In this document: positions 24,176 to 48,821 of the stretch, in pieces | Layout of the letters: each line of letters starts with the position of its first letter | Numbering within the stretch: the first letter of the stretch is position 1 | Assembly (NCBI GenBank): GCA_051294375.1 | Contig: CM119266.1 | Location: 12,886,081-12,950,080 of the forward strand | Reading direction: 5' to 3' | From: Paraspadella gotoi | Taxonomy: Eukaryota > Animalia > Chaetognatha | Length of the DNA: 64,000 bases | The notes under the pieces: model-generated | What the model was told of the DNA's origin: nothing | The model's database searches: none | What the model saw: only the letters and a program-made list of their open reading frames with translations | Program-made: the position numbers and the translations under genes

Positions 24176-24522
24176 ACATGCCTTTTTTTTAGCATCAAGC
24201 CGCCAGGTATATGATTCGTTCTCGTTAATCGATTAACGAATCGATTAGCGATCTAAAAACTCATTTGCATTTTGTAGGACGTGTGATTTTTTTTTCTTTT
24301 AAGTAAATGTTTATTTATCTTTAGGCCGCAGTAAAAACCTAATTCTTTAATCAAAATAACGAATTTCTCACGAAATCCCAAATTATATAAAGGACAGCTA
24401 GAGTAGTAATGAGTTATGAATTCATTAATTTGGCGTACTATCGTGAAATAATCTGAATGATGATGTTAAAAACAAACCGTTGGGCGAAAATGATAAAATA
24501 GTGATAAAATAGATAAAAAAGT

Positions 24523-24850
24523 TTGGTAAATGTGGATTATAAAATGATAAGTGGTTTTATCCATGCACGATTAGTAGAGGTTTTACCTGGATTGGTGCAA
24601 GAGGATCAGGGAGGTTTACCAGGGAGAAAAATATCAGATGTTTTGCATATAATACAGGATGTCATTGATTATTGTAGAATTCATGACGTTGGAGGAGCTT
24701 TGGTATTTCTGGATCTTGAGAAATGTTTTGACAGGGTAGACCACAGTATGGTTTTAAAGACTTTAAAGAAATGTGGTTTTGGGAACAATTTAATTAATTG
24801 GGTAAGGTCATTTTATAATAGAATATTAGTTAATAGGCATTGGTCTGATT
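24523..24850 (+). mobile_element. Non-LTR retrotransposon reverse transcriptase fragment (L1/Tx1-like)
   Basis: NVDYKMIS...RL..VLPGLVQEDQGG.PGRKISD...GALVFLDLEKCFDRVDH...LKKCGFG...INWVRSFY; truncated on both sides. Confidence 0.88.
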
Positions 24851-24873
24851 TACCATATAATTTGCGATTGTCA

Positions 24874-27173: not shown

Positions 27174-27409
27174 ATGGTCTCCAAAGCGGCGCCACGATCG
27201 GCGCCACTTTTAAGGCCGCGCGCCTTTCTCATTTTTTTTCTGGCGCTGCCGATCTTCGCCGACGCCTTCTGCAACGAATCTCGGGGCGCGCCGAGTGAGA
27301 GCGAGCCGACCGAGCACGTCGCCAACGTCGACAGCGTCACGGAAGTCAGTCAGGGAGTGGTGGCGCACTCAATTCCGATTCCACTGCCTGACGGACCTGG
27401 ATCACTAAG
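27174..27409 (+). CDS. Rhs gene exon 1: signal peptide and start of SpvB-like domain
   Basis: MVSKAAPRSAPLLRPRAFLIFFLALPIFADA|FCNES...HSIPIPLPDGPGSLR; donor AG|gtttgg at 27410. Confidence 0.85.
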
Positions 27410-28482
27410 GTTTGGGAATTAGTTTTAGATCATCTGATATAAAAACAGAAAGCGGACCGAGTTGCTCTTCGCTGACTGCTGAGTTCTCACGGTTATAAAT
27501 GTAATTTTCGGCTGACAACGTCTTTTGTTCTTTTTTTCGAAACCCTGACTAATTACGAGAGGATCTCAAAATTTTAAATATACAAACGATACAGACGATT
27601 CATTAACTTTAACAAAAGTATTGTCCCTACTTTTCTAAACACCAGACCGGAACTCTCCATCGACTACTCCAGCTCGGGGTCGCAAGGCGTCGTGGGCATC
27701 GGATTCGGAATCAGCGCCGTCTCTACTATCGTCAGATGCAGGAAGACGCTCGCTCAGGACGGAAAGATCGGGGGCGTCGAGTACGAATCTCTCTCCATCT
27801 TTTTTTAAATTTTCTGAGGGCGCGGTTCCCGATCAAGGGGTTTTTTTTTTTCTTAATTACTTTTATTTTTATTTTTATTATTATTATTTTTATATACTAA
27901 AACGTTTCAACTTTATCATTTTTAAAAATTTAACTCAAGAAAAATAATGTATTCTTGTTTTTACGTATAATTATAGTTTATTTCAAACATTGACGCGTTT
28001 ATACTGTTCGAAATACGCAAGAATTATATATTGAGTTTGAGAAGTAAGTCAAGAAAAGTAAGTAAATTCCCTGTTTTCTAGATTCACCCTCGAAGACGCC
28101 TTTTGCCTGGATGGCGCCCGCCTTCGCAACGTCTCCGGCGGTTCCGGCGCTCCCGGCGCCGAATATCGCTCAGAGATCGAGTCCTTTTCCCGCGTGAAAT
28201 CGGTGGGCGTGTCCGGCGCAGGCCCGGCGTCTTGGACGGTGGAGACCAAGGATCGGCGCCGCATGACCTTCGGTGACGTGGATGCAGCGCGAGTTCATGG
28301 CGATGGACAGGAATCGATCTACGCCTGGTCGTTGACCAAGGTCGAAGATTATTTCGGGAATTCCGTGCGATATAGGTGAATGAAATTGAAATTAGAATTT
28401 TTTTCTTTCTTTCTTTTTTCTTTTTTTCTTTTTTCTTTTTTCTTTTTTCTTTTTTCTTTTTTCTTTTTTCTTTTTTCTTTTT

Positions 28483-28530
<48 letters not shown>

Positions 28531-31500
28531 TATTTCTTTCTTTTCTTTTTTCTCTTTTTTTCTTCCTCTCCATTTCTATTTTTTTTTATTCATTCTTTCA
28601 TTTTTTAAAACTTTTCTGCTCTAATACGTTAATTAATTTTTATTTATTTCGTTTTCTTCCTTTTCTTTTCTTTTCCTTCCCATCCCTTCCCTTCTCTTAC
28701 CTCTCCTTGCCTTACCTTCCCCCAGCTACGACGCGGGAGCCATTCTCACCAAGATCGAGTACGGTCGTGCCGTCATCCACTTCGCCTACGAGGAGAGGCC
28801 CGACCCTAGCGAGTCCTACCTCGGCGGGTTCCTGATCGAAAATTCGACGAAGCGTTTGACGCACGTGTCTGTCGTCAACGAGAACGTCGTCCTCTACAAC
28901 TACAAGATCGGCTTCAACGAGATCGGCTACGGCGGATCCAAAAGATCAATAGTTGACGAAATCAAGGTGATTATCAGTACAGAGTTTACAGAATGAGAAT
29001 TTAATTGATTAATCGATGAACTGATAAAGATTAATTGGTCTGATTTTGATTAATTGATTTTTTGACCGATTGATTGATTGTATCTTTGATTGATTGCTTG
29101 ATTCATTTGTGCGAAGAATTGCTTAATTTTAGAAAATGGAAAGATACTTTAAGATCTATAACGTAGAAGTAATGCACCACCGATCAATCGTCCTTTTTGA
29201 AATGTTATTCCTCCAGGTCTGCGACCGCAACGACCGCTGCTTGAAGCCCCTCAAGTTTGGCTACGACGGCGCCGCTTTTCGCCCAGAGTTCGAGGCGGCG
29301 ACGATGGCGACGGCCGACTTCGGCACGAAGCAAGGATGGAATGTCGAGAGACACGACAGGTGCGTTGCAAAATTTTTCCGAAGGATAGTTCATAACGCGT
29401 TCACAATTTTGTGAATCGTGTGATTAATAATTCATTTAATGTTCCTTGAGAACTAAAAAATCCGAGTTCCTTATAGTTATACGTATTTAACATTGTCGAA
29501 TAAATATTACGAAATATATTACAATAAATAAAGAAGGAATAATAAGGATTAAATAATGAAGAACTTCATAAACTTTAATCAGTCGAGCATTTAACAATTA
29601 ACATCCTCGTACCTTATTGAATATGTTAACCAACTATATGTAAATTTAATTTCCGTAATCTCCACCGACTCTTCAGATTCATCGAGGACATCAACGGCGA
29701 TGGCTTCGCCGACGTCGTCGGTTTCGCCGACTCTGGCGTCTACGTCGGCGCCAACTCCGGCGACGGCACCTTCGCCGAGATGCGCCGCGTCTCCTCCTAC
29801 TTTGGTTCAATCAACTTCAAGAAAGAGAATCCCCGGTTTCTCTCAGACGTTGACGGCGACGGTCTTCCGGACATCGTGGGTCTCGCCAACGCCGCCGTCC
29901 TCGTCGCCTTCAACGAAGGCAACTTCTCCTTCTCCGCCGCTCAAAAGATGACTTCCCTCTATGGCTCCTTCACCTTCAACTCCGGTTGGCGCGCGGACAA
30001 GCATCCGCGTCTCGTCATGGACGTCGACAACGACGGACGCGCGGACATCGTGGGATTCGCCGACCGTGGCGTCTTCGTGGCGCTGAGCGAGGGGCGTCAA
30101 TTCGGCGCCGCCAGGCTTTGGGTCGACAATTACGGCGAAGCCATAGGATGGAAGATGGACAAGCACGTCCGCACGCTGGGCGACGTGAACGGTGACGGTC
30201 TCCCTGATATCGTAGGAATGGCCGACTCTTACGTCTTTGTCTCTATCAACACGGGATCCGGTTTTGAGAAGCCTGCCGTTTGGACGACCGGCCAATTCAC
30301 GTTGAAACCCGATGGTTGGTCAGTTAAGTCAAATCCCCGAATGTTGCGCGACGTCAATGGCGACGGCCTGGCGGACTTAGTCGGGTTTAGCTGCTGCAGC
30401 GTCCAGGTAAAGCTCAACACTGGCTCTAGTTTCGCGCCATCCAAAGTCTGGTCCTCGGAGTTTGGCTCGAGAGTTTGGAGCGCGGAAGATCATCCCCGGA
30501 TGCTGGAGGATGTCAGCGGAGACGGTCTACCCGATGTAGTAGGTTTTGCCGATTCCGGCGTCTTTGTCGCCATCAATCAGGGGTCTAAGTTTGGAAAAGC
30601 GACGAGGTGGAACTCCGCTTTCGGTAAGGGCGTCGGTTGGCGCGGAAATTCTCACCCGCGGATCTTGAGAGACGTTTCCGGTGACGGCGTCGCCGATGTC
30701 GTCGGTTTCGCCGCCACCGGCGTTTTCGTCGCCACCGGCGTCAATCACGCCCCCAGAATCTCGTCGATCGTCGACAGTTTTGGCGCCAAATCGATTCTCG
30801 GGTATGAGACGTTGCCAAGGATGGCAAAAACCAGCGCGTATTCAGCCGGCGCCGCCGCGACATACCCAAAACAAGTCGGCGTATTTCCATTGCCGGTGGT
30901 CAAGAGTTTGGCGCGTTACACAAAAGATAAGATGATAAACGAGACAACCTTCGCGTACGAGAGACTCGAGATCGATCTGAGGGGAAGAGGATTCCTCGGC
31001 TTCAGTTCCATCACCTCCAGAACGTCTACCTCCAATCTCTTCGAGACGGTCGACTTCCACACTGATTTTCCTTTAACCGGAATCGTTCATCGCAAAACCC
31101 TGAGCTGGAAGCGCCAAGGGAAAGACGCGGCCGTTGTCAAAAGATCGGCCTACGAATACGAGACGCCGGAGATCGATGGGATCGTCCACGTGGTCCTGAA
31201 GAGCTCCAAGGCGGAGAGCAACGACGAAGAAGGCCACTTTCTCTCCAGGACTACCTCCAAATTCTCTGAATACCAGAGAGAGTTTGGAGAATTTTGTTCC
31301 ATTGTCGTCGTCTCTGAGGGAAATGACAACCAGACATTCGAGGTCGACACACGTCACGAATTTGAGTCCAACACTGCAAAATGGATTTTGGGAAACACGG
31401 TAAAATCTGTCGTGACTCACAAGGCCATTGGCACACCGGACATTGTCAAGACCATGACCTTTGGATATGACAATAACACCGGCGCAAAGGTCAGAGATGT

Positions 31501-34500
31501 GAGAGACCCAGGGAAAGAGTTATCCTTGGAATCGATCTACGATTATGACGATTTTGGCAATCTGATCCGCCACACTGAGGCTCCCACTGGAGAAGTGGAC
31601 ACGGAGGGTCGAGTTGCAAAATTCGTTTTTGATGAGGATGGCATTCTCATGACGAGTCGTTCCAATGCGCTCGGCCACACGGAGACCTTTGAACATGATG
31701 CCCGGGGCAATGTGGTCCGCTCAAAGGGACCCAATGGAATCTTGACCCGATGGGAGTACAACGAGATCGGCAAGATGGTCACTGAGCTCCGGAGCGATGA
31801 GACATCCACAAAATGGAAATACAAATGGAATGAAGAGGATGAGAGCTACCGACTTGTGAAAGAGGTGCAGGGATTCTCACCCGAGACGAGGATCTACGAC
31901 ATCAACGATCGGTTGGTAAAGATCGTGAATCTAGGCGCCGAGGACCAAAAGATTGTCCAGAAGTATGTCTACAATGAAAGGGGCCTTTTAAAGAAGCAGT
32001 CGGCGCCAGCAAACGAAGGAGACCAGGTTTTGTGGGAGGAGTACGAGTATGACGACTTTGGCAGAGTTGTTAGAGAGAAGAGGCCGGGAGGAGGAGGAAG
32101 GACCGCCGAGACTCAATTTAGGTAAGGGAGAGAAAGAGAGAATAAGGGAGTGAGTGAGAGAGAGAGAATGAGAGAAAAAGAGAGCGGGACTGCTAGAATG
32201 AAAAAAAAAACAATGATTGATAAAAAAATTAAAAAGTAAAGTAGTATTTTAAAATTTATGTATTATTTATGACATTTTAGAATGATTGTTTGCCACAAAA
32301 TCAGGTATGATGGACTTCGGACGACCGAAATTGACCCTAAGGGCAACGCCAAAGTGACGGAGGTCGATATTCTTGGCCGGATTGTCTCTCTCACTGACGC
32401 CAATGGCGCCCAGAATGTGTACGAGTACGATGCAGTTGGAAATCTTCTGAAGGTTTTAAATGCATACAATGTCCCCATTGTGACTGCTTACGACAATTTT
32501 GGCAACAAAAAGACTGTTGATGATCCTCACATGGGCATCTGGTCTTACAAGCATAATGCCTATGGCGAGCTGGTAAGGCAAATAGACGCTGTCGGCAATG
32601 TGATCAACCAGACGTTCGACAAGCTTGGTCGAAAAGTCTCAAAGACGGACATTGATGGAAAAGCTGAGTGGACGTACGACGGCAAAAACGGGATTGGCAA
32701 ATTAGCCATTGAGAAATCCCCTGGAATGGAGAAGGCATGGCTTTATGACAAATTTGGCCGAGAAGACAGAATAATAACCAAAGTTCAAGTTGATGGTGAG
32801 ATCAAAGTATACGAGATAGAAAATATCTATGACAACTTTGGCCGACTCATTACACAAAAGTATCCCAATGGCAAAGAGGTCCATCGTTGTTACAATTCGA
32901 ATGGTTTCTTGTTACGAGTGCAAAATGTTAAGTGCAGCGTTACGTGGGGCGTCTATTGGGAGGCGCTGAAATATGACGCCAAGGGCAAAGTCGTGAAAGA
33001 GCGTCATGGAAATGGCATGTCGACCAAATATGAATACGACAACGCTGACAATCTGCTGAAGATTGAAACTACCACCGTCGATGGAACCGAGAAGATTCGC
33101 GATCTCCGCTATGAGTACGATCTTAACCACAATTTACTCAGCAGAAGTCTTGATGAATCGACTTCCGATGGATCGAGGGAGACCTTCATCTACGACAACA
33201 TGGACCGCCTTCTGCGTGCTTCTCTGGTCACCGTCGTTGACCCTAAAAATTATGGCTATGAACAGAATTGGGCCTATGATTTGGTGGGCAACATAGTCTC
33301 CGACGATGCGTTCGGCCTGCGTCACTTTAAGTACACCAAGGATAAACCACACGCTGTTAAAAAAGCGGGAAAGAACAAATATGAATACAATGCCAATGGA
33401 AATATCATCGATCGTAATGGGATGAAGATCTCATGGACGGCGACCAACAAACCTAAATCGTTCGCGACAGAGAAATCGGTTATCAACTTCGGCTACGATG
33501 CCAACGGCCATCGCTTCATGAAGAAGCACGACGGGGAGACGACAATCAACTTGGGCCAACTCTACGAGGTTAAAATCAGCCCGAACGGAACCCTTTCCAC
33601 TGTTTTTATCTATGCTCACAGGTCGGGCTACATGGTCGCGATGGAAAAAACTATGGAAGAAAAGCGCGAGGTGAATTTTGTGCACACGGACAACTTGGGA
33701 TCAGTCGAAACAATCACCGACAAAGATGGTGCTATCAAGCAGAAGACATGCTACCAAGCTTTCGGACTGAAGCGCAACTGCTTCCCCTTGAAGAATAAGA
33801 GTTCGGAGGTGACCTCAAAAGGTTTCACGGGTCACGATCATCTAGAGTTCGCCGGCCTCATTCACATGAACGGGCGAGTGTACGACGCAGACATAGGGCG
33901 TTTCCTCAGCCCCGATCCGCACATTCAACATCTGTACGACACCCAAGGCCTCAACCGATACACCTATGCGCGAAACAACCCGCTGAAGTACGACGACCCA
34001 TCGGGATACTTCTTCAAAGCCATAAAGCGCGCCTTCAAGAAAGTCGTGAAATTCGTCAAGAAGATGTGGCGCCCTATCCTAGCCGTTGCCGCCACTGTTG
34101 TAACAGCAGGCGCCGCTGCCGGGCCCGCCGCCGCTCTGGTCGCATCCGTGGGCTTGACTGGCACCACGGCCGCCGTGGCAACCGGCGCCCTCGTTGGAGC
34201 CTCTTCCGGCTTCGTCGGTGGCACAATCTCCACCGGAACGATCCAAGGAGGGCTGAAAGGTGCCTTGGCAGGCGCAATAACGGGGGGAGTGACAGCCGGG
34301 GTCGCCAATGCAGACGTGGTGACTCGAATCGTGGGAAAAGCCACGGGGCAAGGCCTCGCCGCGGAGGCAACGGGCGGCGATTTCAAGGACGGATTCGTCA
34401 AAGGGGCCACGTTCGCCAGCGCAAAATTCCTCTACAAGTCTGTCGTCGGCTACGACGCAGTTTGGGAATCCGGCAAGGGCGCAAAGATAAAGGGAGAACT

Positions 34501-34905
34501 CGACATGCCCAATAGGGGCTACAACAACTTTGGCACCCAAGGGCACCAGACCGTGGACCCCAGCTGGTTCAGAGGCGGCTCCATCAATTTTCAAGAGGGA
34601 GGAGGATTCAGTCGGCTGATGACCAAGGTTCCAGGGATGAACGCCATCTCCGGGATGCACGACGTTTTTCAGGTTTATTTTAGGAAAAAAAAAAGGTTTA
34701 AAAATCCCCAAAATCTTCATTGATACGATCCTTTCAATAGGTAAATCTGGACCGCGTGCTTTTCCCCGGTGCCCGCGACATCTTCAACGTGCCCGGAATG
34801 CCAGTCGCTGCAGGAGTCACTTACCTCGCTCTGCAGGATTCGGACACCCTGGGATTCGGCCACTACAAGAGGATGACCATAGACGAAAGCAGGAAGAGCA
34901 AATGA
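27174..34905 (+). CDS. Spliced (8-exon) secreted Rhs/YD-repeat toxin-like protein, 2008 aa: signal peptide + SpvB/TcB-like domain + 7-blade FG-GAP/PVL-like propeller + TcdB midN-like segment + YD shell + Rhs core + C-terminal cargo
   Basis: Exons read by hand: 27174-27409, 27646-27780, 28082-28375, 28726-28966, 29217-29359, 29677-32121, 32305-34672, 34741-34905. All introns are GT-AG, phases match, and the total is 6027 nt with no internal stop. Start context GCCATGG. Motifs: SIPIPLPDGPGSLRPELSIDYSS...DAFCLDGARL; DVNGDGLPDIVGF repeats; GRGFLGF; YD repeats; HTDNLGS...GFTGH...MNGRVYD...GRFLSPDP...NPLKYDDPSG. Confidence 0.93.
27646..27780 (+). CDS. Rhs gene exon 2 (SpvB-like)
   Basis: accag|A acceptor; PELSIDYSSSGSQGVVGIGFGISAVSTIVRCRKTLAQDGKIGGVE; donor gtacg at 27781. 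Missed by the ORF track. Confidence 0.88.
28082..28375 (+). CDS. Rhs gene exon 3 (SpvB-like)
   Basis: ttttctag|A; FTLEDAFCLDGARL...EYRSEIESFSRV...WTVETKD...AWSLTKVEDYFGNSVRY; donor gtgaa. Confidence 0.9.
28726..28966 (+). CDS. Rhs gene exon 4
   Basis: cccag|C; YDAGAILTKIEYG...FAYEERPD...KRLTHVSV...SIVDEIK; donor gtgatt. Confidence 0.88.
29217..29359 (+). CDS. Rhs gene exon 5 (end of SpvB-like region, start of propeller blade 1)
   Basis: ctccag|G; VCDRNDRCLKPLKFGY...ADFGTKQGWNVERHDR; donor gtgcg. Confidence 0.88.
29677..32121 (+). CDS. Rhs gene exon 6: FG-GAP/PVL-like propeller, TcdB midN-like segment, first YD repeats
   Basis: Contains the 781-aa ORF (29780-32125); cttcag|A acceptor, AG|gtaag donor at 32122. 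Confidence 0.93.
32305..34672 (+). CDS. Rhs gene exon 7: YD shell, Rhs-associated core, most of the C-terminal cargo
   Basis: Lies within the 813-aa ORF. The tcag|G acceptor gives TQFRYDGLRTT; an alternative in-frame acceptor exists at 32281. Donor CAG|gtttat at 34673. Confidence 0.93.
34741..34905 (+). CDS. Rhs gene exon 8 (terminal)
   Basis: Follows a 68-nt intron ending caatag; VNLDRVLFPGARDIFNVPGMPVAAGVTYLAL...RKSK, stop TGA at 34903-34905. Coding-like GC content resumes exactly here. Confidence 0.85.
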   Translation, partial: VNLDRVLFPGARDIFNVPGMPVAAGVTYLALQDSDTLGFGHYKRMTIDESRKSK

Positions 34906-36747
34906 TTTTTTTAGTTTTCCGAAAGCGATAACAAGTCAGACCGTCAGGCGACCAACTCGAGGTTTTTTCTTCTCCTTCATTGTCAAATCTTGATTATTAG
35001 TATCTATCAACTTGTCAAGCTATTCGTCTTTAATCTGCTTCTAAGCTAAAGCTTTTTTCTTCAATTGCTTCCGGTAATTTCAGTATTTTATCTTAGATCG
35101 CAGGATTTTTATTATTTTTGGGTTTTATTTCATTTTGTCATATTCTCTTGCATTGGGCAACATTCGAGACTAATTTTTCGTAAAGCAAAAAAAAAGAAAA
35201 AAGAATGATATCTAAATATTAATAACCCTCTACTTTTTCAACGTTGTAATTGATATTTCAAATTAATTAAAGATTTCCTAATTGTAAAAATAAAAAAACC
35301 TGCGTTTCGTCAGTAAATGATTAAGGTAAATAAAAGTTAAAGCGTAAATAAGATCAATCTTTATTATACGGAGGCAATACAAGATTAGACTCGAAATGAA
35401 ACGAAGTAGAAAAAGCCAGAAAACATAAACATAACTTTACTTGAAAAGAAGAGAAAAAAAAAACTAATTGCACCAGGTTTAACGGCCATAACAAGGTAGA
35501 GAAATTCAAGTGGCACAGATTTGGCGAATTCTTTCGATAGGGTAAATACTGGAAATAGTAATACTGACAAGAAAGGAGCAGATGGAATACAAGTTTACAC
35601 AAGGTATTTTCACGTAGCCTGAAGTAATTTAAAGGATAACTCCATTAATGTATTAATTAATACGAAGAGGGTTTCCCCTTATGCGCTCTAAAATGACTTT
35701 GTTAAAATAAAAAAAAAAAGACTGACAATTTTAAGATTAAAGAAGATTTCGATAGGAAATAAACGTGATAGGCTGGTAAGGTTTGGGCGGGTCTCACTGA
35801 AATTTTACAAAAGACAAGTGATCAACCACAGTCGGAAAATTTAATTGCTTTGGTTAAAAAAAAACAAAAAACAATACATAGCACCATTCATTGAAAGCAG
35901 AAACATAATCTTCTCAAGTTAAAGAAAAATTAAAATAATTTTAATGTACAATAATTTTTTAAATTAATTCCGTTAACTTATTATTATCTAAACACTACTA
36001 AAATGATTCTTATGTACATATTTCATCCAGTTATTTACAATACTTCACAAAATGCTTCAAGTTTATGCAGCTCGTTGATATGTTAATGATTGGGCTAATG
36101 CATTCATTACACAATGTATTTTTTGGAAAAACCCGTAAAAATAGATAAAATTAAAGATGATTCGGATTAGTTTTGAAAGTTATTTGTCGATATAATATTG
36201 AAACAAGTGAGCCTTATTTGACAGTATTTATAAAGGAATTAAGGAGATAACTAACCAATAAGGTTTAAAAACAAAAGGGCTTTTTCTAAATACTTCAACT
36301 CTAATCAGAAAATAAATTAATTTACTTTTGCTAGTTATCAAGATTTTAATCTTAACAGGATAAAACGTTGAACAGTGATCGTAATCCGTGTCAAAAGAAA
36401 AGAAGAAATAACTACATTTATAAAAATCAATTACAAAAAATTTAAGAAGAAGAATGATCAAGAAAGGGATTGATTGACTGATATGATGTGGGCAGCAGAT
36501 TTATCGAAAAAAAGTCATGGTAATAAAATCTCATATTAAAATTTTTGTGGATGTGATGATTGTAAACTATTGCGTTTCGTGCGCTCAAAATTTCAAATAC
36601 TAAGTAGCTAAGTTCAGATTTTCTAAATAATTTAAACGAATCTGTGATCAATTCGTACTCAATTACAAAACCTGGCGCAAACTTCCCAACGCGACGAGGA
36701 AAGTAAAGCGTTCCTTTGTATTTTTTTTTCTTAATTCTCAAGAATCG

Positions 36748-38596
36748 TCAGGCGAACAGACCCATTCGATTAACTTTGGCCGACAAAAATGTATGGAGGA
36801 CAAAAACGATGGGTTTCGGGCAGCTGTGCAAATCGATCTCCTGTAAAAAAAAATACAAGCCGATATCATTATAAAGTATTATTTTTAAGAACCAGTATCT
36901 TTTGTTGTTTTTTTTTTTTAGTTCAGAACATTGCCGTTGGAGCCCGCAACTCGTTTCCCTCACCTGCTCCCCGTCGTCTCCGCCAAAGTCCAGCCAAAGT
37001 ATCCTTTGCCCGTCGTCCGCTGACATTTTAAGTTTTTCAAAGGGAAATTTCCAGACGAGACGTTCCTGTCCAACTTCCGGTCCAGAACTTTGCGGCGCCA
37101 CGAGGCTGAAACCGTCGTTGTAGTGTAGAGTCAGCTTGGCCTCCTGTCCGCGCCACGTTACGTCTGTAACAAAAGAGCATTCATGGATTTCTTAAAGGGC
37201 GGGAGAAAAAACCCGGGCAGATCACAGAAGCTTCACTCCGGTCGACAAAAAAACTTATTATCATCTTAAATTAAAATGCATCCAGTCATGGACAGACTTA
37301 CTGCACTGAATTTCTTTGATTAGTGAAGCAGCGTTGTGAGAGCCAGCGACCAGAGTCCGACACCACTCTGTAAAAAATAAAATGAATATTAATGAGGTCG
37401 GCTAATTAATTAATTGATAAAATAAAATGAATATTAATTAGGTCGTCTATGAATTAATACCCACCGGCGAGATCCCGATGAGTGTCGAGTCGGAAGGTGT
37501 GGCTCTCTACGCCGCCGCGCGTTCCAGTCCTCGTCTGGAAGTAGAGGCTGTCGTGGAGCGACGACGTCGAGTGGGGCTTCGTCGGCGACGTTTGGACCAG
37601 CCTAGTTGGAGGCGGGGCCGGGGGAGGGGGTAAGTTCAGAGCCAGGGTAGTTAACAACTTAATCTGTATCGTGGGTGTAGCTAAAAAACAAAGAGAGATT
37701 ATAAAGAACGTCCTTCGACATTGTCGTCGTCATTTCTCAAAACCATACAGTAGTATGTGTACATTGTTTATAATTTGTTCTTCCACTTATTTTTTTCTCT
37801 CCATCGTTCTAAAAATCTTTTTCATTCGACCCCGTAACAGTTCAATTTATTTCTTTTCCTGTTGTTAGTTTTGGATCCTTGAGCTGTTTTCATAAAACGT
37901 CAGGGTTAAAAGTCGACCTCGAACCCCAGACCTTCCGGGTCAGCCAGCGACGACCCTGCCAACCAAGGAAAGCAAGAAATCCGAGGACGAAACTGTCGGC
38001 GACGAAGGCGACAACGATGACGAAGACGATAGCGACATCGACGATGGCAAAAAATACGAGGAAAAAAGAAAAAGAAAAGATGACAAAGACAAAAATATCT
38101 TCCGCCGACAACATCTAAAAAAGTAAAATACGAGGAAGACGAAGTTAACAATGAACGCTTTACCGCCGGCGACAACGACGACGACAAGTAAGACGACAAC
38201 GACAACGACTCTGCCGACCTGAAGGGCTTTCAATTTTCGAGGACGTCAAGATTCGAGAAAATAGATCGTGAAAAAAAAAGGGAAGAAAAACAAGAAGAGA
38301 GGAAAAGGGGAGGAGGCCTTGACTGAAAGGGTTGAAGGAGTTTGTGGAGTTTGGGAAAAGACTTTGAAAACTTTTTTTTTGTTGCCTTAGTTAAAAATAG
38401 CTTTTTTGATCTTAGATTTAGTTATTTAGTTTATTTAGTTATACAATATTATTATCCATAACTTACCTAAGTTATGGATTTTACTAAAACAGTCGTATTT
38501 TTGATTACACTAGAATATTTTTTTTTAAAAAGGGAACCGAAAATGTTTTTTTTCAAAAACTGGACAAAAATAAAAAATAAAAATAAAAAGACGACG

Positions 38597-43899: not shown

Positions 43900-46800
43900 G
43901 ATTTGCGATTAAGATTTTTATCGAATTCTAACCCCACGTGGCATCTTCAGATCTCAACGTTGCACTGGGTTCTTTAGTTCTTTCAGAGCATCAGAAACGC
44001 TCTATTTCAGAATCTCGGAATCTTATTTTTTGTGTCAAATCGCTGGTTTGGTGGACTTTTTCTATGAACAGAAGCAATCTCTTTTTGGTTAATATGTTCA
44101 GAAAACAGTAAAGAAGACAACTTTTAACAAATTTTATATAATTTTGCTGAGTTTGGTGATACCAATGTTTTTGTTATCTTTGCCCAGGAACTTCTAACAG
44201 CTACCACAGACTTCCTACAAAGACTATACGACTCCTTCTACGACTACTACATCAGCTACAACAGCTACAACATCTTACACAGCAAACAGCTACATCCTCT
44301 CAACGACATTACAAGCTTTACAGACATTGCGTCAAGTTCCTGGGCTTAGTGGAACAGTCGTCATTTCCGGCCTTTAGCCGGACGTCGTCTACTGAGACTT
44401 TGTCGTCAGCATCTCAGGTGCGTCTGGACCGGCGCCATCGGTCTCTTCTGCGCCATTTTATCCAATTCCCCATCTTGGTTTTTGAATGCGCAGCAAATTA
44501 GTCCACTCAGTTAGAATTCAAGACGACGCCACTTCTTCCGACTTAGTTTCCAAAACAATTAGAGTCTTCGTTTGCGGAACATCCTGCTCAAAGCTCTTCG
44601 TCGAAGGCTCTCTAATCCTCGCGGAGTTTGCGGATTCCACTGGGAAGAAAGATCCCCTGCGTTCGAATCTACTAGGTGTCGAAACAGCGACGCTTTTCCA
44701 TCAATCCGAAGGCCCTTCAACGCCCTTCCGACGGAACGATAGGACTCCGGCGGCGCTTCGGGTTTGACTGCTTTCCATTGGCGATTTAGGGATCCTCGGC
44801 CTAGCGAACGCACGCCGGTCGGAGCGTATTTTGGACTACCGTCGACGGATTGATGACATCGCGCTCCCTTCTTCCAGAAATGGCAGTGAGATTGAAGTCC
44901 GGGTTTCACTTGTTTTTTAATTATCTTCGTCCTTTGCGTATAGTCGGATTGCTGGCCCACCGATCTTCGCCGAAGCCTTCCTTCGCCTCAAACGGCGTTT
45001 TTTTAGTGCCATCGCGGCGACGAAATAGGAAGGGAAGAAATAAAGCCGCGCCAAGCATCAAAAATTAACGTCGAGAAGCTCGAGTGCCGAAAGCCTTCAA
45101 GGAAACTCCCCTTCGGCGTCTTTGTGAACTTCCGCACGCTCGTTTGTAAGACGCTAGTAGCGGCGAAAGGAGGAAGACTATCTTGACTGACATTCAAGAC
45201 GGCCGGTATGTGCAGCGAACCGTTAGGTTACGACGTGCCCTGTCAATCACCTACTCTCTCCAACCACCCTTAGGCATCCGATATCGACAATACTGCCTTC
45301 TTTGCCCGCCGGCGACCATGAATCTCTTTTACCCGGAACCGAGTCAGACCTTCAGGAATGCAACGTCTTCCATCCAGAAACTCAACGTCGACCAGCTGTG
45401 GTCGAGGCCCTGCCAACGCGATTTCGCTAGCGATCGTCTGCCACAATAATGTAAGGCCGCCGCCGAACGGAAGAAAACATCGCGGAGGCCAACGCGGATA
45501 GATTCACTCTAAAAGGCAACTTGTGAAATCATTCGGTTCCACGGATGGAAAGAGGTCGATGGGAATGACGAGGCGTTGGAGCTTTTGTCGGAGCTCCTTC
45601 GATCGCTCAGCACATCCTCCCATGCTGGGGCATTGCCGCCAGCTCGATCGCGGAGCAATTCTATGTCGAAGACAGCGTGTTTTCATCGGTCTGGAAAGCA
45701 ATAGAGATCGACAGGCACGCTCCCGTATCCGCCGCAGCAGGATGAGTGACGACGCAGAAGGAATCGGCGGAGCTTGACGCCCAAGCCTTCCTTCAGCTGC
45801 AACCATCCTGACGACGACTGACGGCTGCGTCAAGCCCCCGATCCATTACCGTGTCCCCGTCCACCGACTGTTGAAAGATGACTTTCGAATCGGCAACGTC
45901 CCGCTCATTTTCCCGTTTGACGCCGTTTCGGCGTTGACGGATGATCAGCGCACAGCAGCAGAAATATCAACTTCACTCATCCAACTATCGCCGACGACGA
46001 GATGTGGGTGCGTTAGCCCCCAGGAAGTTGCCAGCCCGGGTCCTGGCGCTTTGCTCAGCATCCGCAGTTCACGGCCTGTTGCGGCATCTTCCGGGACGAC
46101 GTCGCCAATTACTCTGGATCGACGAAGAAGATACAGAGTCTTCAATCAACATCAAATCTGTCGCCAACGAGAATTCAAATTGGTAGCTCGATTATTGATG
46201 AAGCGTCTCGCGTCGGCGTCGATGGCAGTGCGCAGTGATTTTTTGTCCAGTTCGAATCTTCTTATTAGGAGTCTCGCGATAGATTGAAGAGACGTTGCGT
46301 GAAATCGGCGGACTAACGAACGTGTGTGCCGCCGCTGCGAAAATCCCTCGATCTCCTCCAGTCCCCTGGAAAATCGCAAATAGGAATCACGAGAATGGAA
46401 AGAAATTGCGAGAAGAAGTGATTCTGAGCAGAGGCCCGGTAATAAAACGAGTTATCTTGGCGACAGATCGAGGGAGAGACACTGTTTCAAACGTCAATAC
46501 GGCCTTCATCACATACGCGTACGGCCGAGTGGGTCGTGGCCTCAGTCATCCTCCCCGTCTTGAGCTCCTTCTCTCCAACAGCGTTCGTCAACCGTCTTCA
46601 AGCTTCCAGTCTCCAGTCGAATGATTTGATCGATTCACTGCCATGAATCGCGTCTACGTCTCAACGAAGTCGGCGTCTAAATTCGTCGACGACACGTGAA
46701 CGTCATCCGCGCGGACCGGAACAATTGGATGGCGAGGAGGCGGTGGGCGTTGGAACGAAAGCATGTCGTTCCGACCGCCCGCTCGATCTTCCGCCAAATC

Positions 46801-48086
46801 CGCAGTTCGTTTTCAATGGAGTTTTTTGCGCGACGCAAATAAGGGACCTTCTTCAATGATGATTGCGTCGTGCCGCGTCCGAGAACGAGGGGAGTGAATC
46901 CTCCCCCAGTTCCACGCCTTACCACGCCTGCCGGCCGTTTCCTGCGCTTGCGGCGTTGAACGCGAAACGCGGCGTCAATGAAAGGGACGTTTTTCCCCGG
47001 CCGACTGATGCGAGTAATCTGAACGTCTCTGTCGCCTCAAGGCATCAAACGGCGTCAAATCCCCTGATTGCGGCGCCGTTACCGAGCAGCCCTTCGTATA
47101 CTTATCCGCTCCGCCTGCAATGGCCCCCGGAACGGGTTTTTTTTAGAGATTCAAAGCTCAATTCGCTCGCGCCTATCAAATCTTCACGCAGCAAGCGCCC
47201 AAAGATCACGTCGACGAGACTTTCCGTCGCTGTTTAGACTTTGAGCGCAACCTTCGCGAATTTTAACGTCAGCCGTCTGCGCGTTGGAGGCGCTAACGGA
47301 TCCAAATGAAGTTCGCAAGGAGCCTTCCTCACTCGGTTCGACGGTCTTCCAAGCGTTTTCCATGATCCGATATCTATCTCGGTTAGACGCTAACCACCGC
47401 GGCTCTTAGTGACGCCCTTGGGTTCTCAAGAGAGTGGGGAATGAAGCGGACGACGCGACTTAAATGATTGAACAGTCCATCGGCGTCCTAAAATTGCTCG
47501 ATCGAAAGGACTCAGCGGTTGTCATCATGGTCTTCTGATCGACTTTGCAGCCAGGTGTAACGACCTCGCGAAGGAGACGGACCGACTCGCCGACCTCGAC
47601 CGTTGCGGCCCGTCATGGCGGATCTGCTCTCCCCCAACTGGATTGCCACACCTTTCAGATAAGGTGGGACGAAAAAGTGGTTATTTTTAGACAGAATCAT
47701 GAATTGGAAACCGACGATCTCTCTTTTGTGATTTCTTGTCTTTTCTGCCATAACCAAGAAGTTCTCTGATTTACAGAACCACGCGAAAAAATGGAAAAGA
47801 GATCCACGGCGACGTAGCAAGCGAAGATGGCGGTCGAGGGTCACCACGCTGATTGCGTCGCGGTCAAAGCATCTTCGAATGAAAGAAGGTTCGTGGCCGC
47901 CGCAGCCCGTTCCTGCATCAACGGGACGCCGTCTTCAGGGTTCGGTCGTCGTCGTCCACGCCGGATCGAAACTTTTATTCCATGCCTCATTTGCAAAGAC
48001 TCTGCCACTATATTGTGCATATGCTTGCGACATTCACCGTCTGTGGCCGCAGACCTTCGTCGAAATACTTGCGTCTCTCAGGCCCG
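43900..48086 (+). mobile_element. Degraded or error-rich BEL/Pao-type LTR retrotransposon pol region
   Basis: Frameshifted motif remnants in the expected order: DGRY.V (~45195), FNA..S..LN.DQL..GP-like (~45350-45410), MTR..F...SS (~45565), QFYVED resembling FYVDD (~45655), LLSI.SS...SPITL (~46050-46115), AYG.V (~46515), H.T.SNP (~47045), integrase-like segment (~47980). No LTRs identified; boundaries approximate. Confidence 0.55.
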
Positions 48087-48821
48087 NNNNNNNNNNNNNN
48101 NNNNNNNNNNNGGAAAGATAGGAAAAGAGAGGGAAAGAGGGAAAGATAGGGAAAGAGAAGGAAAGAGGGAAAGAGAGGGAAAGAGAGGATTTGAAGGAAA
48201 AAGCTACGATGGGGAAGAGGGAAGAGAATGTTGGCGGGAAGGGGAGACGACACGCGTTAAAAGGTACGAACGCCATCGAGAGAACTTTGGCCTCCGGCGA
48301 AGCGACGGGAAAGGAAAGGGACTACGATCGTGAGAAGAATTTTCGGGGGGACGGACGCAGTTGGGGGAGGTAGGTAGGGGAGGAAAGGAAAGAAGGAAAG
48401 GGAGGAATGAAGGGAGATAGGAAAGAAATAATTGGGAAAGAAAGGGAGGACGATAAGAAGGAAAGGAGGAAAAGAGAAAAAAAGACTTGGTAAGGAAACC
48501 TAAATAGGAAAATGATTAAGACTTAGAAAAGCGGTCGTACGGATTTAAGGAAAATTAAAAGAAAAAAATGGGAGGAAAAAAGATGATGAAAAGAAATGGA
48601 GGCAGAAAAATAATGATGATAAAAAAAGGCGACGGAGGGACGAAAAAAAAAAGAAAAAGAAAATTAAAAATGGAGGAAAGGAAAGAAAAATTGATGTTTG
48701 CTAGTTTTCTTTTTTTTTTCGGGCGGAGAATCCAGCGCAAATTGTTTGTCCATCAGCGGATTCGGGCTCAACATCATTCCGCTCTTCCCTTCCACCGAAT
48801 TCTATAGCGGGATCGGCAAAA

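Follow-up and report, generated by a model that had tools for sequence, protein, structure and literature searches.

Domesticated Rhs shells are already known in animals, where teneurins, mosquito SGS and gall-midge rhs have either been rebuilt or carry a cargo of unclear use. The stretch examined here, referred to below as the window, is 64,000 nt of contig CM119266.1 of the chaetognath Paraspadella gotoi (assembly GCA_051294375.1, positions 12,886,081 to 12,950,080 of the forward strand). At 27174–34905 it holds a spliced gene for a 2008-aa Rhs protein, in which the cargo can still be recognised as the toxin tip of a bacterial system, and for which microbes encode a candidate antidote.

The whole layout is shared with stand-alone SpvB/FG-GAP/TcdB-midN/Rhs toxins of marine Proteobacteria, Campylobacterota and cyanobacteria, which also have a signal-like N-terminus, an autoprotease motif, a Gly-rich carrier and, in some cases, the same final domain. 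The window gene differs from them in being spliced, in lacking an adjacent immunity gene and in having a fixed tip. Measured against the hallmarks of Rhs/YD polymorphic toxins, it has the YD repeats, the Rhs core and the autoprotease motif, but not the variable tip or the neighbouring immunity gene. The BC component of Tc toxins (TcdB2-TccC3) likewise has an SpvB-like start, a propeller, a YD shell and the motif PxxxxDxxG, but its sequence match to the window protein is weak (E 2e-13, about 120 aa). Tc loci are described as being without immunity genes (PMC7861908). No TcA-type domain was found among the 87 open reading frames (ORFs) of the window, nor among 60 ORFs scanned around nine microbial loci, and the protein is not a Tc toxin proper. 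A first-pass annotation, made from the sequence alone, had likened its layout to fused TcB-TcC proteins as well as to polymorphic Rhs toxins.

Among animal proteins, mosquito SGS1 is described as a 3364-aa protein with a Tc-BC-like shell, propeller and lectin domains, an Arg/Asp/Asp autoprotease, a hydrophobic cargo of about 230 aa and a Tox-SGS domain, without a classical signal peptide, and is regarded as a horizontal gain (PMC9935623). SGS had been set apart from the full bacterial layout, but with these Tc-BC-like features SGS1 is a closer precedent than was allowed. The window protein, in contrast, has a predicted signal peptide and no Tox-SGS, and it matches SGS1 at E 8.7e-4, far below its matches to bacterial Rhs proteins. 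Of the animal analogues SGS1 comes nearest, but judged by sequence it was gained separately. Gall-midge rhs is reported to be horizontally acquired and intron-bearing with its autoproteolysis residues retained, and its description as Xenorhabdus/APSE-related and insect-restricted sets it apart from the window family (PMC8455502).

Teneurins and bacterial teneurin-like proteins (TLPs) also have a YD shell with a C-terminal cargo, and a bacterial TLP matches the window protein at E 2e-12. Teneurins are cited as a precedent for a repurposed Rhs shell (PMC3482391) and are stated to have lost the autoprotease Asp (PMC9935623). No intracellular, transmembrane-helix, EGF or Tox-GHH match was found on the eight exons with Pfam, in agreement with the earlier statement that the protein lacks EGF repeats and an intracellular domain and is unlike teneurins. 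Nor is there a metazoan teneurin among 26 PDB matches, and the protein is not a teneurin.

Gene structure, transcript and genomic setting

The two long ORFs were confirmed at 29630–32125 and 32273–34723. Together with six small exons they had been proposed to form a single 2008-aa frame, and lengths, splice borders and phases all agree with this: the eight exons total 6027 nt, or 2008 codons plus a stop, in one frame with no internal stops, and the seven introns are all GT..AG with compatible phases. The GC content of the introns is 0.25–0.35, against 0.51–0.63 for the exons. The parts of the gene are as follows.

27174..27409, + strand: exon 1, with ATG, predicted signal peptide and start of the SpvB-like region
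27646..27780, + strand: exon 2, SpvB-like (SpvB E 0.009, under cut-off)
28082..28375, + strand: exon 3, SpvB-like (SpvB E 0.0015, under cut-off)
28726..28966, + strand: exon 4 (gene model and splice joints of run X9)
29217..29359, + strand: exon 5, first lectin-pocket segment, D..W..H (gene model, X9 joints and pocket alignment)
29677..32121, + strand: exon 6, seven-repeat PVL/AAL2-type propeller (about 29678–30745), then the first half of the YD shell
32305..34672, + strand: exon 7, YD shell, Rhs core and most of the cargo
34741..34905, + strand: exon 8, coding part including the stop (gene model and X9 joints)
34906..35463, + strand: 3′ untranslated region (UTR), to the end of the spliced X9 contig, with AATAAA at 35289 and 35329

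In one 6,655-nt contig of the public run X9, which extends to 35463, introns 4, 5, 6 and 7 are each missing exactly between the predicted splice sites. The comparison with read contigs covered 28726–37500, so that all four introns of the gene within it are skipped by X9, as the proposed splicing predicted, whereas the DNA runs X5 and X7 have no splice joints over them. Introns 1–3 have indirect support. The X9 contig carries 735 nt upstream of 28726, which fits the spliced length of exons 1–3 (665 nt, against 1552 nt unspliced), and exons 1–5 are collinear with intact homologues, with no break at any junction. The share of sequence words contained in X9 (0.77) is close to the exon share (0.76). 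None of the listed runs is recorded as RNA; it is the splice joints that mark X9 as RNA. The stretch is present in nine public runs from three studies of one organism, four of which are possibly its source, while run X10 of a second organism (organism B) gave short repeat matches only. Exonic variants number just three (two silent, one replacement), and no second full copy was seen at 85% likeness among the contigs listed, which is no proof of absence. The gene is confirmed as a genuine spliced, transcribed animal gene.

Downstream lies a neighbouring gene that is outside the system but serves as a host marker.

36748..37400, − strand: last exons of a syntrophin gene (CT..AC joints; PF23012 E 1.9e-37)

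Run X9 also splices this opposite-strand gene, and its contigs tile 35454–35718 from the 3′ UTR of the Rhs gene into that of syntrophin, so that the two genes stand tail to tail and their ends abut or overlap. Since no single read-derived contig covers both genes, their linkage rests on the assembly of the window, and contamination or the misassembly of a symbiont gene might be proposed on this ground. That explanation is very improbable, given that the transcript has had spliceosomal introns removed, that the stretch recurs across the nine runs (with the reservation on four of them made above), that the introns contain host-like microsatellites and that there is no N between the Rhs gene and syntrophin. 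Elsewhere in the window, a reverse-transcriptase fragment (24517–24873, RVT_1 E 5e-11) lies 2.3 kb upstream of the Rhs gene, and a GC-rich region (44400–48300), which contains numerous short ORFs but gave no Pfam match, may be a decayed mobile element.

Shell and lectin propeller

Exon 1 encodes a basic start followed by hydrophobic residues at 17–28, which is predicted to be a signal peptide. In profile searches of single exons, FG-GAP_3, FG-GAP, RHS_repeat (E 5e-26), TIGR01643 and TIGR03696 (E 8e-17) scored above cut-off, with FG-GAP and RHS repeats in exon 6, and RHS repeats and the Rhs core in exon 7. The SpvB domain is split by the exons and stays under cut-off on exons 2 and 3, but passes on intact homologues; TcdB_toxin_midN has no match on the eight exons of the window but is matched on animal homologues. 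No added animal domain was found on any of the eight exons with Pfam.

The FG-GAP region matches the fungal lectins PVL and AAL2, specific for N-acetylglucosamine (GlcNAc), at E 1e-64 to 1e-78, and consists of seven sequence repeats homologous to PVL, the arrangement of the PropLec7B class. By this homology it is best read as a PVL/AAL2-type lectin propeller, a point absent from the first-pass annotation. PVL and AAL2 are reported to bind terminal GlcNAc, and the AAL2 pocket to be formed by Asn/Asp, Trp and His, of which the Asn is indispensable (PMC4483166). The window protein shares the seven repeats and the pocket Trp and His (both present in five of seven pockets), but here the propeller is built into an Rhs protein of 2008 aa, and the Asn/Asp is mostly replaced, leaving two of seven pockets complete. 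A table in PMC11186620 already records the PropLec7B class for Cnidaria, Rotifera, Annelida and Brachiopoda. A single-sequence model of the propeller was poor, with a predicted local distance difference test (pLDDT) of 31.

The shell ends in the core and is followed by the cargo.

33797..34006, + strand: Rhs-associated core carrying the Arg/Asp/Asp autoprotease motifs R..DP and PxxxxDPxG, directly followed by the predicted cleavage site
34007..34072, + strand: cationic amphipathic segment at the head of the cargo, 22 residues with a net charge of +9
34073..34430, + strand: Gly-rich hydrophobic helical carrier, boundary approximate
34431..34902, + strand: final domain of about 125 aa with invariant Y/S/N/H/D, interrupted by intron 7; its start is approximate

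Both autoprotease motifs, as defined in PMC7861908, are intact (at 33896 and 33977). This bears out the suggestion of a capsule with an autoprotease motif, in which the cleavage itself is predicted from sequence.

Relatives and origin of the family

A search among long proteins gave 1034 matches and one with the core and cargo gave 380; the best 120 of each were examined. Among these, the top nine long matches include five named animals, Tubulanus, Exaiptasia, Lingula, Owenia and Actinostola (35–38% identity), and the core and cargo search ranks the same animal group first. A mid-length protein search added one further member (P0241). The Actinostola model (P0009) continues past the cargo into an unrelated PF05721 and is probably a gene-model fusion.

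In the shell tree, a clade of 13 rows stands apart from the other rows and holds the window protein, those of the five named animals, one diplonemid protein and a further six records without a name, which could include microbes. Its support by the Shimodaira–Hasegawa-like approximate likelihood ratio test is 100 with 48 rows; it is 100/100 with 25 rows and 100 under a mixture model with 22 rows, in trees that omit near-duplicates and lower-scoring relatives. A quick tree of the cargo recovers the same clade minus the diplonemid with support 98, while the base of the propeller tree is unresolved and its animal rows are not one clade. By these comparisons the gene is a member of a multi-phylum invertebrate family (brachiopod, nemertean, annelid, two sea anemones) within one shell clade, and not a one-off gain; the isolated acquisition supposed at first gives way to this. 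A bacterial origin of the lineage is well supported, and the initial view of a genuine spliced host gene with bacterial-type architecture and ancestry holds. Outside the clade, P0019 is the sole relative among 234 long proteins to unite lectin-type pockets with this tip. The genome scan covered 27 of 64 parts and was dominated by the core motif, and closer bacterial relatives may exist. Viral contigs gave six pattern matches, none of which was confirmed.

The animal copies may descend from one ancient gain followed by losses; they may equally well have spread through several transfers, whether from one eukaryote to another or out of a single microbial lineage that has not been sampled. Owenia is 61–64% identical to the anemones and only 39–44% to Lingula and Tubulanus, and a lophotrochozoan clade of these three was rejected by the approximately unbiased test (p 2e-8), the tested group having been picked from known taxonomy after the first tree was seen. 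The pairing of Owenia with anemones would result from lateral spread, but old paralogues with differential losses yield the same tree. The diplonemid protein (P0059, Lacrimia) lies inside the shell clade, which also points to transfer, although it is a long branch with a differing propeller and tail; it has a related shell with added F5/8 type C domains. Two members, P0235 (1985 aa, on a 24-kb contig) and P0002 (1894 aa), are single ORFs, and to judge from protein records the introns of the window gene seem unshared. Against several transfers, a single clade is obtained with the shell as well as with the cargo, and for six of the 13 rows in the shell clade the source organism is not established. 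The window protein has a Cys-Cys pair in repeat 5 of its propeller (window 30392–30397) that occurs in Owenia and the anemones and is absent from Lingula and Tubulanus, although the shell tree groups the window protein with Lingula.

The cargo, its microbial neighbours and predicted function

The cargo is the best-conserved part among the animals, with 46–56% identity between animal-clade members compared with 35–44% for the shell. The first-pass annotation had assigned a variable C-terminus, but all complete animal-clade members share one tip, and variation is confined to microbial relatives. Of 302 stored tails, a search-biased set, 231 match the low-complexity profile of the Gly-rich carrier and 62 have this final domain; in 167 other tails the carrier precedes 118 distinct end clusters. 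As the carrier is joined to so many different ends, the final domain occupies the slot of a toxin tip: it is one tip of a polymorphic system in microbes, frozen in animals. Tips on relatives among the best 120 of 1034 matches include some with the Pfam labels PF01551 and PF14113, which are wall-active.

The Owenia cargo, modelled from 39 rows, is all-helical (pLDDT 75); residues 18–63 are poor. With this model, Foldseek gave no match at E 0.001 in the PDB and viral libraries. In a comparison with VIA, the top 11 rows were Tim17/22/23-NDUFA11 bundles, matching over the carrier part (Z 6.9–9.0, below the 13 advised for helical bundles; root-mean-square deviation 2.7–4.0 over 89–116 aligned residues, part of them with pLDDT <50), so that a resemblance of the carrier to these proteins may serve as a lead only. 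The ESM Atlas likewise gave leads only (<0.9). For a phospholipase A2-like reading of the His-Asp helix no support was found.

The same cargo also occurs in microbes. The final domain is present in 82 of 156 fetched loci, 68 of which have at least 450 nt downstream. Directly behind it, 54 of these 68 loci, near-duplicates included, encode one family of proteins of about 100 aa, and in 52, on the same count, the downstream protein fits a lipobox pattern. The lipoprotein has two conserved mature cysteines (e.g., L001:8268-9346, L004:74-1242, L022:4667-11094 and about 50 more loci), no Pfam or NCBIfam name and no match to SmpA/OmlA. A tip followed by a lipoprotein is the classic immunity layout, making the lipoprotein a candidate antidote; its profile had no match in the six frames of the window. 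At L001:2707-9346, an orphan cargo and lipoprotein cassette lies beside primase and integrase genes, suggesting that a mobile element carries it. A different protein of about 200 aa stands behind the same tip at L054:3862-4485, L070:10902-11522, L080:525-1124 and L050:10577-11164; these proteins, that of L070 being a Sel1-repeat protein, are possibly a second immunity type.

According to PMC12419801, lipoprotein immunity marks periplasmic or membrane action of the toxin, and SpvB-propeller-RHS chassis appear in its supplement 5. The motif order of the final domain is no obvious fit to Lipocone (His/Glu/Asp, four-helix cone, BamE-like lipoprotein as the immunity partner), and five family motifs used in the Lipocone test gave chance-looking matches only in the five of six supplements of that paper that were searched.

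The favoured reading is a capsule that is secreted, cleaves itself and sets free an antibacterial cargo directed at the cell envelope; this function is predicted, and is given about an even chance of being correct. The hydrophobic N-terminus would direct secretion, and the propeller, with its Trp and His in five of seven pockets, may bind N-acetyl sugars. By homology to solved Rhs and BC structures the shell would enclose the cargo, and the intact motif predicts self-cleavage at the Rhs core. Membrane entry would be effected by the cationic amphipathic head and the Gly-rich bundle. The putatively toxic final domain would then act outside the cytoplasm, on the bacterial envelope, as the lipoprotein immunity layout suggests (following PMC12419801). 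No immunity gene was found in the window, and the animal could do without one if the target is bacteria-specific. The hydrophobic cargo of a bacterial TLP is reported to have permeabilised E. coli only if exported (PMC13018210).

Several points weigh against this account. Of the seven lectin pockets, the Asn/Asp that AAL2 needs for GlcNAc is kept in two in the window protein, in 0–2 in the named animals, whose complete pockets also number 0–2, and in 4–5 in two microbial relatives, so that the sugar specificity may be altered or weakened. The final domain belongs to no family named in Pfam or NCBIfam, and structural searches gave no clear match for its fold. A frozen tip is usually not expected of an arms-race weapon, by our own reasoning, and with neither TcA nor a secretion needle the cargo would need some other way out of the shell and across an outer membrane. 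The window shell is also a long branch in the mixture-model tree.

Alternatively, the capsule could target eukaryotic cells, whether of prey, predators, fungi or parasites, with the lectin binding chitin-like or truncated glycans and the cargo damaging membranes. The named carriers include anemones and a nemertean, and anemones and nemerteans are toxic animals; Lingula and Owenia, also carriers, are not known as venomous. The binding of terminal GlcNAc by PVL and AAL2 and the cationic, hydrophobic cargo would suit such a target, as would the intoxication of animals by Tc BC relatives (PMC7861908). However, in microbes this cargo is accompanied by an immunity-type neighbour, whereas Tc toxins have none, and the ORFs scanned gave no TcA-type domain. 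A eukaryotic target is judged unlikely.

It is also doubtful that the protein took on a new role, as happened with teneurins, and now serves as a secreted lectin or opsonin, or in mucus or signalling, with a cargo that has ceased to kill. A cargo frozen across phyla and the one copy seen (85% likeness, contigs listed) would agree with this, and teneurins provide the precedent (PMC3482391). Yet the autoprotease Asp lost in teneurins is retained, as are the final-domain residues invariant in bacterial versions; no animal domains have been added, and the distribution is very patchy.

No paper was found on the family or its cargo in a search whose coverage left subscription journals largely outside, and gene models exist in databases. 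Going beyond the antibacterial capsule, a bolder and rather improbable reading is that eukaryotes took over a complete interbacterial weapon, made up of a lectin targeting ring, a self-cleaving capsule and an undescribed envelope toxin but without the antidote, and that it has since passed laterally from one animal phylum to another, serving innate immunity as a secreted particle targeted at bacteria. With a recognisable tip and a candidate antidote, the function becomes testable by a simple toxin-immunity assay. The family also yields an unnamed bacterial tip and lipoprotein pair, and its tree makes transfer between animal phyla testable.

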